DNA of 13,498 bases, taken from Gammaproteobacteria bacterium. Its GTDB lineage: Bacteria; Pseudomonadota; Gammaproteobacteria; GCA-001735895. Under the pieces are notes generated by a model. The model did no database searches and was not told where the DNA came from. It was given only the letters and a program-made list of their open reading frames with translations. A program made the translations under genes and the position numbers. Of the stretch, positions 1 through 3,014 are shown piece by piece (the first letter of the stretch is position 1; the number at the start of each line of letters is the position of its first letter). The stretch is taken from the NCBI GenBank assembly GCA_050298595.1, contig JBNKUM010000060.1, forward strand, positions 1-13,498, in the 5' to 3' direction.

Positions 1-192
1 TTTCTGTACCGCGATGAATGGGCCTGAAGCTAAATCAGTTGACTGACCCGCTAACAATTTACGATGACGATAAAAGGTTTTACTGGATAGTCCATTTGCC
101 AGACAAAATGCTGCCGCATTTAAATCACTACTGGCTTGTTGTTCGATCAGCTCCTGCCATTCTGATTTACTGCGATGCTTTCGTTTTCCCAT
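1..192 (-). CDS. tnpA: IS66 accessory protein TnpA (N-terminal 64 aa, runs off window)
   Basis: Not in the ORF track. Manual translation from ATG at 192: MGKRKHRSKSEWQELIEQQASSDLNAAAFCLANGLSSKTFYRHRKLLAGQSTDLASGPFIAVQK. The W..LI..Q..S.L....FC...GLS..TFY..RK.L pattern is the IS66 TnpA HTH-like signature. Confidence 0.85.
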   Translation of the reverse strand, partial: MGKRKHRSKSEWQELIEQQASSDLNAAAFCLANGLSSKTFYRHRKLLAGQSTDLASGPFIAVQK

Positions 193-270
193 CTCTGTTA
201 CCTTTTGAAAAAAGTAATAGTTTAGAGAAAGGTATTCAGATATTTTAGGTGCTTATCGCTGGACGCTTAC
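1..270 (-). mobile_element. IS66-family insertion sequence, left end (continues beyond window start)
   Basis: The - strand from 270 reads GTAAGCGTCCAGCGATAAGCACC, a typical IS66 terminal repeat start (GTAAGCG), followed about 80 bp later by an IS66 TnpA-like ORF. Confidence 0.85.
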
Positions 271-336
271 TGCATACGGACCGGTATGTACGCTGCTGTT
301 GGAGGGGGGGCTACTTGAGTAGCTTCCTATCCCGAA
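271..336 (+). mobile_element. 3' end (partial domain V plus domain VI) of a group IIC (attC-targeting type) intron, degenerate
   Basis: TGCATACGGACCGGTATGTACGCTGCTGTTGGAGG resembles the class C DV consensus (..CCGTATACGGACCCGTACGTACGGTGGTGTGGGAGG); 271-277 pairs with 284-290. DVI hairpin GGGGGCTAC-TTGA-GTAGCTTCC, candidate branch A at 329, terminus CCTATCCCGAA (canonical is ..CCCGAY). It abuts TATGTGC, the remnant of an attC R'' box. Confidence 0.8.
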
Positions 337-671
337 TATGTGCGCTTTGTAGTTTATTATGACTTTCTAAAAGCATGGGGACAAAAATTTACTATTGTAA
401 AAATAAAACTGATCTAGAAGTCGTAGATTAGTTTGGTCTTTCTTTTTCTAATTTGGCTCTTTTTTATTTTCAGGCTGTACTAAAAAAGTTAATGGGATTG
501 CAAAAGGTCCCAAGATAACAGCAATCACTCTCTGAACCATATTTGGCTTTACATTCCTGGATTGTGCAATGTAGTGACAAATAATCGAGCTAACCACCCA
601 AATTATTACTAGTACATAAGCAGCCATTTTATTTCTCCTTTAGTGGTTTCAGTATAGTTTTTAGCACATAA
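337..671 (-). mobile_element. Integron gene cassette 2 (its attC is interrupted by the intron)
   Basis: Begins G|TTATGTGC (672|671, - strand) and ends GCACATA (343-337, - strand), the exact complement of its own core site, cut where AC of R'' should follow. Contains one ORF. Confidence 0.8.
448..627 (-). CDS. Cassette-encoded 59-aa small membrane protein, function unknown
   Basis: Absent from the ORF track (whose shortest entries are 61 aa). MAAYVLVIIWVVSSIICHYIAQSRNVKPNMVQRVIAVILGPFAIPLTFLVQPENKKEPN*. Strong RBS AAGGAG 7 nt upstream (640-635), two hydrophobic segments, lies inside a cassette. Confidence 0.8.
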   Translation of the reverse strand: MAAYVLVIIWVVSSIICHYIAQSRNVKPNMVQRVIAVILGPFAIPLTFLVQPENKKEPN

Positions 672-752
672 CGTTTTGCCTCAAAGGCGAGCACTACAGC
701 TCTCACCAAAGCGGCACAACTCGTGCCACGAGTCTTTTGGGGGCCCTTAAGC
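666..752 (-). other. attC site (87 bp) of cassette 1, with defective R'' box
   Basis: R' GTTATGT (672-666). The bottom strand folds: 678-688 pairs with 732-744 with an extrahelical G (in the 739-743 G run) and an extrahelical T (733). Internal hairpin GGCAC-AACTC-GTGCC (713-727). R'' reads GCTTAAG instead of GCTTAAC. Confidence 0.85.
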
Positions 753-1071
753 ATTGTTTGCAACTAGCCCCATTAGCCAGGGAACAAATACTTTTTGAAG
801 ATAAACCAAACTTACTATGCCAATCCCAATGGCTATATACCTGAGCACATTAACCCGATAATTATATAAATATTGAGAAATAGGAGACGCTAAAAACAAC
901 CATAATAAGCCACCGCCAATAAGCCCTGATATCAAAGCTTGGGGTATTTCAAATGATCTATTCGATAACCAACCAGCAGTAATGGAAAGCAATACCATCC
1001 CCAACGAAGGTAAACGATTTTTTCTTCCTATTAATACTGATCTGATCATCTGGATCTTTCCGTATGCTTAA
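672..1071 (-). mobile_element. Integron gene cassette 1
   Basis: Starts G|TTAAGCA (1072|1071). The ORF stop lies within the complementary TGCTTAA (753-747), followed by attC: classic cassette architecture. Confidence 0.8.
747..1049 (-). CDS. Cassette-encoded 100-aa hypothetical membrane protein (about 3 hydrophobic segments)
   Basis: The ORF fills the cassette, ATG about 22 nt after the crossover point, TAA inside R''. Hydrophobic stretches LGMVLLSITAGWL, LISGLIGGGLLWLFLA, YIAIGIGIVSLVYL. Confidence 0.8.
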   Translation of the reverse strand: MIRSVLIGRKNRLPSLGMVLLSITAGWLSNRSFEIPQALISGLIGGGLLWLFLASPISQYLYNYRVNVLRYIAIGIGIVSLVYLQKVFVPWLMGLVANNA

Positions 1072-1117
1072 CAGCTTAAATATGTAAAAAATTGAGGTAT
1101 TTAAATACCTCAATTTT
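1066..1117 (-). other. Candidate attI-like/primary insertion site with adjacent perfect 30-bp palindrome
   Basis: Core GTTAAGC at 1072-1066 has no upstream R''/L partner able to fold as an attC. AAAATTGAGGTATTTAAATACCTCAATTTT (1088-1117) is a perfect palindrome 15 bp upstream. The attI identity is an inference. Confidence 0.5.
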
Positions 1118-1499
1118 CCGGATATGACTTTTGGAATAAAAATGATATTCCCGGGATAAAATTGAAGTTTTTTCCTTTAGTTCAACAGGTTGAAAACCTT
1201 TCATCCTTTTACCCTTAACTAACACCTCGGAATATTAACTCATTTTTCCATGACATTGGTAAATTAATTTGATTCTTCAGTGTTTGTTGGCTAAATACCT
1301 CAATGAAAACGTATTGAGAACTTTAGTCATGGAAGATAGAATAATGAATGGAGTCAGCCATAGAATAGAAATTAATGAAAGATGAAGGTATTCAGGTTTA
1401 AGCCAACAAAATCAGTTTGGGAAGTGCCTTCTTTTTTTTCAGGAAACTCATCGTAGTGTAAGTATTGTATCTATCATAATAAAAAATGAGATCATGCAT

Positions 1500-1844
1500 T
1501 TAGATTTGGAGTCTTTTTAATTGAGCCTCTAATTTTTCAATTCTTTCCAGTAGATTGAGCGCCAGCGCAACACCAGAAAGATTAATGTCGAGGTCATTTT
1601 GTAACCTGATTGCTGTACGTGCTCTTTGCAGACTAATCGTAGTAAATCGCCACTGTGTTATCTGGACGCTATGCCTTTCATAATCAGCAGGATCAAGATT
1701 AACAGGTTCAATGACACCTTCTTCAACCAGCTTTATGATCCATTCAGCAGAGCTTGAGCATGCAGTGCAAAGTTCATTCAAAGATAATTCAGTTTGATCA
1801 TCAAGCAAAACACCGTTGAGTATTTTATGTTCCATTCTTCTCAC
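1500..1844 (-). CDS. cbpM: Chaperone modulator CbpM (MerR-like HTH)
   Basis: LSLNELC...WIIKLVEEGVIEP...WRF...RARTAIRLQNDLDINLSGVALALNLLERIEKL matches CbpM. Directly downstream of cbpA (GTGA overlap; alternative ATG at 1835). Confidence 0.92.
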   Translation of the reverse strand: MRRMEHKILNGVLLDDQTELSLNELCTACSSSAEWIIKLVEEGVIEPVNLDPADYERHSVQITQWRFTTISLQRARTAIRLQNDLDINLSGVALALNLLERIEKLEAQLKRLQI

Positions 1845-2782
1845 ACCCCCATTGCACTGCGTGGATTATAAAAGAGTTTTTGTTTCATTTTATGGTACAG
1901 CTCTTTAGCCTCATCACTTTTAGCTGGCGGTAAAGTAATCTGGAGAATCACGTAAAGGTCACCTGGAGAAGAAGCAGGTATTCCACGAGCTTTTAACCGA
2001 AGTTTGCGTCCACTAGTACTGCCGGCTGCAATTTTTAAATCAACAGGACCATTGGGTGTTGGTACCTTTACAGTGGCACCTAAAGCTGCTTCCCAGGGCG
2101 TAACAGGCAAGTTCAGATATACATCATGCCCCTCTGCTCTATAGATATTATGAGGCTTGAATTCAATCACCAGATATAGGTCACCAGATGGGCCGCTTCC
2201 TAGTCCTGAGGATCCTTGACCGCTTAGCCGTATTCTCTGCCCTTGTTTAACACCTTTAGGAATTTTAACATTCAAGGTGCGCCGTTTATAAACGACATGC
2301 CCACTGCTATCCAGTTCGGGCGTTTGCAGAGAAATACTACGAGTAGCACCCCGATAGGCATCCTCAAGGTCGATGACTATCTTAGCATGGTGATCCTCTC
2401 CACGAGCGTAATATCCACTGTGCCGACTTCTTGCGCTAAAGCCGCGGCCAAATAAAGATTCAAAGAAATCACTATATTCGGCAGCATTTCCACCAGTAAA
2501 GCCGCCACCACTAAACTCAAAACCAGCATCCCAATCAGGTGGAGGATTAAAGTCCTGGCCGGCCTTCCAGTTTTTCCGTAGTTGATCATAGGCGGCACGT
2601 TTCTCTGGATCTTTTAGTGCTTCGTAGGCCTCACCAAGTTCTTTAAAGAGGTCTTCGGCATTTTTTTCATTACTGACATCTGGGTGATATTTGCGGGCAA
2701 GCTTTTTATAGGCTCGCTTAATCTCAGTCTGACTCGCATCATTATTTACACCAAGAATCTGATAATAATCTTTAAAGTCCAT
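1841..2782 (-). CDS. cbpA: Curved DNA-binding protein / DnaJ-class co-chaperone CbpA
   Basis: J domain (KDYYQILGV...KYHPDVS), G/F region, DnaJ C-terminal domain without zinc finger, paired with cbpM. Confidence 0.95.
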   Translation of the reverse strand: MDFKDYYQILGVNNDASQTEIKRAYKKLARKYHPDVSNEKNAEDLFKELGEAYEALKDPEKRAAYDQLRKNWKAGQDFNPPPDWDAGFEFSGGGFTGGNAAEYSDFFESLFGRGFSARSRHSGYYARGEDHHAKIVIDLEDAYRGATRSISLQTPELDSSGHVVYKRRTLNVKIPKGVKQGQRIRLSGQGSSGLGSGPSGDLYLVIEFKPHNIYRAEGHDVYLNLPVTPWEAALGATVKVPTPNGPVDLKIAAGSTSGRKLRLKARGIPASSPGDLYVILQITLPPAKSDEAKELYHKMKQKLFYNPRSAMGV

Positions 2783-3014
2783 GCATGGCTCCAGATATGA
2801 GCAGTTGATTAATGAAAATTATAGACCACAATTCATAACCTAAAGTATATGCAAATAACTAGAGAAGCGAACTTTATTTATAACATCCTACTTTCGAAAG
2901 TGTTCCTGAGTGCATACGAAGCCGCATTTGGCTCTAAATCCGAAAGTCATAGATTTTTCCGCTAAGCAACTTATCGTGGGCATATTGGGAGCAATCTGGT
3001 CAGTTTTGCGTCAT

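Follow-up and report, generated by a model that had tools for sequence, protein, structure and literature searches.

The left end of the window (the whole 13,498-nt stretch analysed here, contig C60 of its assembly) is best explained as belonging to a small chromosomal integron, now defunct, of which it forms the distal end. Under this explanation, a group IIC-attC intron left a relic in the R'' box of the attC site of cassette 2 (attC2), and an IS66-family element then inserted into the domain V sequence of that relic; we give the explanation as a whole a probability of about 0.6. Three nested layers are present from left to right, namely an IS66 end, a remnant of intron domains V and VI, and an attC R'' box, as the initial annotation had read them from the letters, and the identity of each layer and its boundary on the right-hand side are observed directly (Table 1).

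The parent assembly comprises 119 contigs (5.49 Mb, 45% G+C), and C60 begins within a repeat. We refer to the present genome as G000, to its contigs as C60, C36, C71 and so on, and to relatives as G002 (same genus), G010 and G011. Searching a plasmid collection with window positions 1-700 returned no DNA match.

Table 1. Features at the left end of the window; arrows give the direction of minus-strand features.
Feature	Position	Strand	Remarks
IS66-family insertion sequence, left end	1..270	-	runs off the contig start
IS66 terminal inverted repeat GTAAGCGTCCAGCGATAAGCACC	270->248	-	starts GTAAGCGTCC (270->261)
TnpA start, 64 aa	192->1	-	frame open at the contig end
Candidate target-site duplication TGCATACG	271..278		adjoins the IS end
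3' relic of group IIC-attC intron, 66 nt	271..336	+	BLAST to five paralogues, alignment, Rfam alignments of the paralogues, family model
Domain V, from the base after the CGC triad to its end (3' two-thirds)	271-296	+	
Domain VI with bulged A	about 300-333	+	follows a linker
R'' box remnant of the cassette 2 attC (attC2)	337..343	-	GCACATA on the cassette strand; complementary to cassette 2 start
Cassette 2	337..671	-	bounds from attC1 R' and the intron end
Cassette 2 ORF, 59 aa	627->448	-	predicted membrane-like
attC1 (of cassette 1)	666..752	-	R'' GCTTAAG 752->746, paired L boxes, R' GTTATGT 672->666
Cassette 1	672..1071	-	starts G|TTAAGC, where the homology of three attI modules ends
Cassette 1 ORF, 100 aa	1049->747	-	no Pfam or NCBIfam family
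attI / intI-promoter module of a decayed integron	1066..1339	+	91% identical to C100:90901-91174
intI stub ATGGAAGATAG	1329-1339	+	ATG plus three codons; homology to C100 ends here

An integron that has lost its integrase

Read on the minus strand from position 1339 downwards, the window contains an intI stub, attI, cassette 1, attC1, cassette 2 and seven bases of the R'' box of attC2. Besides its close counterpart on C100, the attI module has a second relative on C8, to which it is 81% identical. The homology of the module stops after ATGGAAGATAG, which indicates that intI has been deleted from codon 5 onwards. On C100, an N-terminal intI fragment lies about 30 nt downstream of the module in the same orientation (C100:91205-91363; TIGR02249, 44.2 bits, one stop). 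The three attI modules diverge exactly at G|TTAAGC, G|TTAGGC and G|TTATGC (minus strand), which is the attI crossover point. A search with the integron integrase model TIGR02249 finds nothing on C60, and elsewhere in the genome it exceeds its curated cut-off on C89 (466 bits), C75 (374 bits) and C99 (361 bits, with two stops), in addition to several further integrase fragments. We also note that C100 carries an intron relic 2 kb from its attI-intI module, in the right orientation.

The attC1 site aligns with eight other copies in the genome (BLAST and alignment), and an HMM made from the attC copies finds 16 sites (nhmmer). The family consensus, gCCTAAC-AAtGG-CCTTCAAAGG ... CCTTTGAGGC-nnnnC-GTTAtgc, folds with paired L'' and L' boxes and one extrahelical base, and the R boxes pair as well in two individual copies. 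Its R'' box is CTAACAA, which reads TTGT|TAG on the bottom strand, and AACAA is present in six of the nine aligned copies. Within this family attC1 is a variant, with an R'' box that ends in AAG instead of AAC and a spacer that is 3 nt shorter. Folding of positions 650-780 alone gives a structure no better than that of shuffled sequences (z -1.09). The cassette 2 ORF, like that of cassette 1, matches no Pfam or NCBIfam family.

The intron junction lies in the R'' box of attC2

The seven bases TATGTGC (337-343, plus strand) directly follow the last intron base and are thus the 3' exon of the intron. In the 4 kb downstream, the reverse complement of these bases has a single occurrence, at 664-670, with AC after it. 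This match is the terminal R' box (minus strand GTTATGTGC, 672->664) of an independently identified attC site. The complementarity of the R'' remnant to the start of cassette 2, already noticed in the initial annotation, is thereby borne out (TTATGTGC at 671->664). A chance match of seven bases has a probability of about 1 in 16,000 when both positions are fixed by other evidence, and of about 0.015 for the 7-mer plus AC when 4 kb are scanned. Since the two positions are indeed fixed independently, by the last base of the intron and by the R' box of attC1, the match is far beyond chance. The R'' box of cassette 1 (GCTTAA) is likewise complementary to its cassette start (TTAAGC), so that in both cassettes R'' is the complement of the first bases, as cassette structure demands.

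Introns of the IIC-attC lineage insert at R'', at TTGT/T of the attC bottom strand and antisense to cassette transcription, according to the available part of PMC7923331, and the available part of PMC3001079 makes the same statement on strand and orientation. The insertion rule that the initial annotation had brought to this locus is thus found in both of these sources, and it can also be seen directly in a class 1 integron intron (NZ_MK552108.1), where a 5' exon ...GAATTGT is followed by an intron that starts GTACGCC and ends ...CCCGAT, and then by a 3' exon TAGAC. The intron family of the present genome has the 3' end ...CCCGAT|TA, and the 3' exons of the paralogues described below also begin with TA. 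Applied to the window, the junction test for IIC-attC introns (..GT|T RRRY in R'' of the bottom strand, with the intron antisense) places the 3' junction in the R'' box of an attC bottom strand. The intron runs antisense to the cassettes, with attC1, attI and both cassette ORFs on the other strand. R'' would be completed by two further bases (AC on the cassette strand, GT ahead of the intron), which the rule assigns to the 5' exon; at that place, six of the nine aligned copies of the attC family have TTGT on the bottom strand. Across the genome, the complement test between R'' and R' is positive for three of eight introns and relics (the window, C18 and C75) and is not positive for the copies on C100, C76, C74, C48 and C85.

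The 66-nt relic belongs to an intron family of this genome

Five paralogues in the same genome, on C100, C76, C74, C48 and C85, are 83-89% identical to positions 271-336 (BLAST). A whole-genome scan with the Rfam model RF00029 (Intron_gpII, gathering score 40 bits) places the copies on C74 (45.6 bits) and C100 (43 bits) above the gathering score and those on C48 (31.6 bits) and C76 (23.4 bits) below it; the C85 copy is not listed. The same model, which the initial annotation had proposed for positions 271-336, gives no match there, either at the gathering score in a search of the window or at E<=10 in searches of 1-800 and of 262-345. The 5' strand of domain V is missing from this stretch, and we attribute the silence of Rfam to this loss, which makes the test too strict for it. 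Five weak Rfam matches on 1-800 (freshwater-2, snoU2_19, AbsR25, RNase_P and mir-4922) score far below their cut-offs and were set aside as chance. A covariance model made from six copies of the family (R1) matches the window at 263-336 with 45.2 bits (E 7.6e-9), and its only other matches in the 13.5 kb fall on a palindrome at 1086-1119 (13.8 and 12.6 bits). In the R1 alignment, ACGCTTAC at the IS terminus takes the place of the domain V 5' strand; as no upstream intron is attached to it, we consider this a coincidence and not a restored helix.

In the Rfam alignments, domain V of the paralogues reads GCGCYGUAUACG-GACC-CGUAUGUACGGUGC, with CGC occupying the place of the catalytic triad where the Rfam consensus has AGC, and domain VI (...CUAUCCCGAU) has its bulged A eight bases from the end. 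The alignment of the window with the paralogues starts at the column next to the triad, which confirms that the IS66 element cut domain V directly 3' of CGC. Similarly, domain V was correctly described as stopping at the IS end, in that the intron match starts at 271 and the IS boundary lies between 270 and 271. The helix of domain VI and its bulged A are retained. The relic ends in GAA versus GAU in the family, so that its terminal AY is AA, versus AU in six of six members. It deviates at four columns (9, 29, 36 and 70) that are each invariant in the six aligned members: one change weakens a domain V pair, one weakens a domain VI pair, that in column 29 affects a base whose partner would be on the missing 5' strand, and another falls in the terminal AY.

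The derivation of this repeat from a real intron is shown by the coding sequence upstream of other copies. The paralogues on C48 and C85 extend into sequence that encodes the C-terminal end of a group II reverse transcriptase/maturase, and the copy in G002 extends into 216 aa of an intron-encoded protein (IEP) with a YADD motif before its contig ends. This IEP piece is 49-52% identical over 216 aa to ltrA genes, which are its best plasmid matches, and the one ltrA match with its neighbourhood examined (NZ_MK552108.1) lies between class 1 integron cassettes, antisense to them. That positions 271-336 are instead a chance hairpin or a separate small repeat resembling domains V and VI, as the Rfam silence and the occurrence of the repeat in this genome only as short pieces might suggest, is scarcely credible against two paralogues above the curated Rfam cut-off, the reverse transcriptase/maturase C-terminus upstream of two others, and a G002 IEP that is 49% identical to the ltrA of a class 1 integron intron.

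The IS66 end

The terminal repeat of the insertion sequence starts GTAAGCG, which we take to be typical of the IS66 family, and a leader of about 55 nt separates the repeat from the TnpA frame. The 64-aa TnpA start scores 46.4 bits against NCBIfam NF047593 ('IS66 family accessory protein TnpA', cut-off 28) and finds no match in Pfam. It thus resembles the TnpA of the ISAeme5 type (NF047593) above the curated cut-off, and it is 43-47% identical to the frames directly upstream of PF05717 (TnpB_IS66) matches on C14 and C94. A second copy of the IS end opens C36 (1-270) and differs at one of 270 bases (99.6% identity). As the C36 and C60 copies diverge exactly after base 270, the boundary of the element is fixed at 270/271.

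Members of the IS66 family carry tnpA, tnpB and tnpC genes between terminal inverted repeats and generate an 8-bp target-site duplication. The window copy presents the TnpA N-terminus and the left repeat, whereas its tnpB, tnpC and right repeat lie outside the assembly. The likely right end of the element is at the tail of C71, where the IS starts 141 nt from the contig end and a TnpC-like C-terminus is present. Its flank there is the 43-nt terminus of another IS66-like element. This terminus is uninterrupted in the relative G010, without the IS, and we therefore rejected the outer GTAAGCGTCC on C71 as the true IS end. The element thus has at least three copies, of which one lies within the end of another IS66-like element. 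Nothing points to site-specific targeting, as the C36 and C71 copies have unrelated flanks.

Order of events and state of the intron

From the nesting we infer the order cassette, intron, IS. A group IIC-attC intron would have entered the bottom strand of attC2, in antisense orientation to the cassettes and with GT|T of R'' as its insertion point, the usual TTGT/T site of its lineage, leaving the 66 nt of its 3' end that are now visible. An IS66-family element would later have transposed into domain V, directly 3' of the CGC triad, which would make it the outermost and youngest layer. By the time of its arrival the intron copy was most likely already dead, a 5'-truncated relic of abortive retrohoming; given a simple insertion, we regard this earlier death as probable, arguing from the paralogues and from sequence decay.

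Truncation at the 5' end is found in each of the five paralogues, which share only 80-223 nt of 3' sequence. A tblastn search of the assembly with the IEP C-terminus recovers, for the reverse transcriptase of this family, only short C-terminal remnants on C48 and C85 (62 and 37 residues, plus one smaller fragment), and also finds two different introns on C13 and C75. The relic diverges by 11-17% from its nearest paralogues, versus the single difference in 270 bases between the IS copies. Because the IS copies are nearly identical, and the relic is far more divergent and altered at four invariant columns, its decay can hardly be later than the IS insertion.

These observations bear most directly on the possibility that attC2 held a full-length, working intron until IS66 split its domain V by simple insertion, with an 8-bp duplication, and thereby killed it, in which case the remaining intron and the rest of attC2 would lie just beyond the IS. 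The junctions visible in the window fit such a history equally well, and full-length members do exist in the genus, as the G002 copy retains YADD and runs off its contig. Nor does the absent left half of the locus prove anything in a 119-contig assembly that contains no contig under about 2.9 kb and lacks at least three junction partners. We nevertheless consider a working intron unlikely, since truncation is the state of every paralogue, no IEP of the family beyond short remnants was found in the assembly, and four invariant positions have changed while the IS copies remain 99.6% identical. For the same reasons, the claim of the initial annotation that the IS66 insertion inactivated the ribozyme is probably wrong. 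No activity is left at the locus, which has lost intI and has an incomplete ribozyme; cassette 2 is not excisable through attC2, because that site is split.

The far side of the IS66 element

In the preferred explanation, the IS66 element would have entered the relic by simple insertion with an 8-bp duplication, for which TGCATACG is the candidate. A second copy of this 8-mer with a matching junction is on no contig in searches of the assembly by inverted-repeat pattern and junction motif, and within 600 nt of every contig end the motif GTAAGCG occurs only on C36, C60 and C71, plus unrelated repeats. The 5' exon, TTGT, the rest of attC2 and the 5' strand of domain V, which would read ..GGTCAGGCGC in the far-side junction, are likewise on no contig of the assembly. 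The 8-mers at the three IS junctions do not pair (TGCATACG on C60, ATTGAATA on C36 and GTTTCACA on C71). The C71 junction is the only right-end junction in the assembly; its flank is unrelated and its 8-mer matches neither of the other two.

One reading of this pattern is that the junction between IS66 and intron arose by an adjacent deletion or by recombination between IS66 copies, which removed or replaced the sequence to the left, so that neither a duplication nor further intron sequence would be found next to the window copy. The unpaired 8-mers agree with this, and at least three copies of the element, including one nested in the end of another IS66-like element, provide a substrate for recombination. 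Missing contigs, however, explain the unmatched junctions just as well. The DNA expected beyond the C71 copy, known from G010, is also missing from the assembly, which brings the missing junction partners to at least three. The smallest contig in the assembly is 2,950 bp, and the record of a close relative names k141 contigs of a metagenome bin; short contigs were thus evidently dropped, and a missing junction partner is no evidence for deletion. As positive evidence for a deletion is nil, we regard this reading as rather improbable, and simple insertion into the relic remains the reading that we prefer.

Searches outside the assembly bear on the same junction. Among 30 relatives the IS end occurs only in G011, at the C36 site and again at a contig end. 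An exact-pattern scan of public genome contigs returned only the G011 record, and two scans of metagenome contigs returned nothing. Contigs from four runs that share words with the window were mapped on the G002 intron end, where many related community contigs match; the place expected for the missing junction is not among the 24 loose ends listed for these runs, 98 further ones being unlisted. A comparison of window positions 271-2900 with the 30 relatives yields cbpA-like matches but no syntenic empty site for the cassettes.

Relation to known integron introns and insertion sequences

The closest known systems are the IIC-attC introns of class 1 integrons (S.ma.I2 type), exemplified by the ltrA intron of Klebsiella pneumoniae plasmid pKpnB199 (NZ_MK552108.1). 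The window family shares with this intron the place in R'' of an attC bottom strand and the antisense orientation to the cassettes, and its insertion site would likewise be TTGT|T; both have the 3' end ...CCCGAU and a domain V lower stem that starts CGCC; and the G002 IEP is 48.8% identical to the pKpnB199 ltrA over 216 aa. Unlike the plasmid intron, the window retains only a decayed 66-nt 3' relic whose domain V is cut by an IS. The setting differs too, in that the window integron is chromosomal and intI-deleted, with cassettes without known function, and belongs to an environmental gammaproteobacterial assembly and not to a resistance plasmid. Resistance genes or other genes of known function are not involved at the nested locus.

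Truncated introns in integrons have been described before. The available part of PMC7923331 reports that IIC-attC insertion occurs also in arrays without an integrase and that truncated introns outnumber those of full length. It includes published cases of truncated IIC-attC introns in integrase-less arrays, and it ascribes the 5'-truncated integron introns UHB.F1 (IIC-attC) and H.ha.F1/F2 (CALIN) to incomplete reverse transcription. As far as they are described there, these introns resemble the window relic as 5'-truncated remnants in arrays without a working integrase, and differ from it in that they keep part of the IEP gene and, in the case of H.ha.F1/F2, belong to class IIB. An IS-interrupted truncated intron is not described in PMC7923331, in whose text 'IS66' occurs 0 times.

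Insertion sequences in attC sites have likewise been published, including the IS1111-attC group (PMC3001079, available part). The window element shares with that group, as presented there, the disruption of integron recombination sites by an insertion sequence; however, it belongs to a different family and sits in an intron relic rather than in the attC itself. The available parts of PMC7923331 and PMC3001079 contain no case of an IS66 element inside a IIC-attC intron relic. All components of the locus are nevertheless of known kinds, namely the IS66 family, the IIC-attC intron lineage and a decayed chromosomal integron. An IS66 element in an intron relic in an attC site is an ordinary stacking of such mobile elements, and the combination is unsurprising. 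Our analysis of the locus thus amounts to the annotation of known kinds of element, for which the nested anatomy had been correctly read from raw sequence and the functional inference had gone beyond the evidence.

Implications for the decay of chromosomal integrons

A wider proposal concerns the IIC-attC introns of this genus, whose 3' relics in R'' might represent a recurrent freezing of cassettes in sedentary integrons that is retained by selection. We consider this very doubtful. Relics that split R'' from the rest of attC would block excision by IntI, and they would accumulate at the cassette ends of decaying multi-copy integron platforms by selection and not only through abortive reverse transcription. 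The window would then be one such frozen cassette end, later struck by an IS.

Taken alone, the nested locus is of slight significance. It adds an annotation that gene callers miss, as the dead integron, the intron relic and the IS are none of them visible as an ORF. The genome as a whole shows that several integron platforms, numerous relics of IIC-attC introns and an active IS66 are present in this environmental gammaproteobacterial lineage. This is useful background for studies of the decay of sedentary chromosomal integrons and for tests of the role that has been proposed for IIC-attC introns in cassette formation.

Group II introns and a dispersed repeat elsewhere in the genome

The genome from which the window comes (G000) holds further group II introns, on contigs C13, C75 and C18 (see table). 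An additional one is indicated on contig C74, which carries a 5'-truncated paralogue of the window intron relic. Here the Rfam model group-II-D1D4-3 matches positions 583-829 of locus L005 (C74, minus strand) with a score of 71.3 bits. The match and the C74 relic share a strand, the match being about 680 nt further downstream, and a second intron therefore begins close behind the relic. Contig C100, which bears another truncated paralogue, includes at 88616-88726 (approximately 1330-1445 of locus L003) a sequence that is dispersed through G000, with copies on more than 40 other contigs at 85-98% identity. In appearance this repeat is of the REP or MITE type.

Features of the window and of the genome G000
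Feature	Location	Remark
Group II intron with 474-aa RT	G000:C13, whole 3,753-nt contig	contig end falls within domain V
Group II intron with GIIM domain	G000:C75:90219-92203	an intI gene is situated about 1.5 kb away
Domain V/VI end	G000:C18:3330-3399	almost the same form as in the class 1 integron intron
attI / intI-promoter module, ~270 nt, repeated	window 1066-1339; G000:C100:90901-91174; G000:C8:18015-18225	
DnaJ-domain protein, 313 aa (DnaJ + DnaJ_C), and MerR_2-family partner, 114 aa	window 1500-2782	flank the dead integron

Ends of the IS66 elements

The covariance model built from six copies of the intron family places the terminal bases of the window IS66, ACGCTTAC (263-270), on the 5' strand of domain V, which the relic lacks. 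Among these bases is a CGC, four bases away from the junction. We read the alignment of the IS end to domain V as a coincidence. The multi-copy IS66 whose right end is seen at the tail of contig C71 (57631-57814; L027 1832-2015) has itself inserted into a second IS66-like element, 43 nt in from that element's terminus. This second element is uninterrupted in the relative G010 (G010:C78:14804-14846; L028).

Integron remnants within the genus

The two proteins encoded beside the dead integron, the DnaJ-domain protein and its MerR_2-family partner, look like the cbpA-cbpM pair. Within the integron itself, the attI / intI-promoter module contains a perfect, spacer-free palindrome of 30 nt (15+15 nt; window 1088-1117). 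The attI crossover is some 20 nt away, and the palindrome is also kept in the C100 and C8 copies of the module. One possible role for it is as a protein-binding site, another as a terminator lying between intI and the cassettes.

The module is present in three copies in G000 and is matched in other genomes of the same genus, with at least six matches in G010, three in G001, two in G012 and one in G011. Its terminus is a four-codon intI stub in the window and an intI fragment with a stop on C100. Decaying integron platforms seem to be numerous in this genus.
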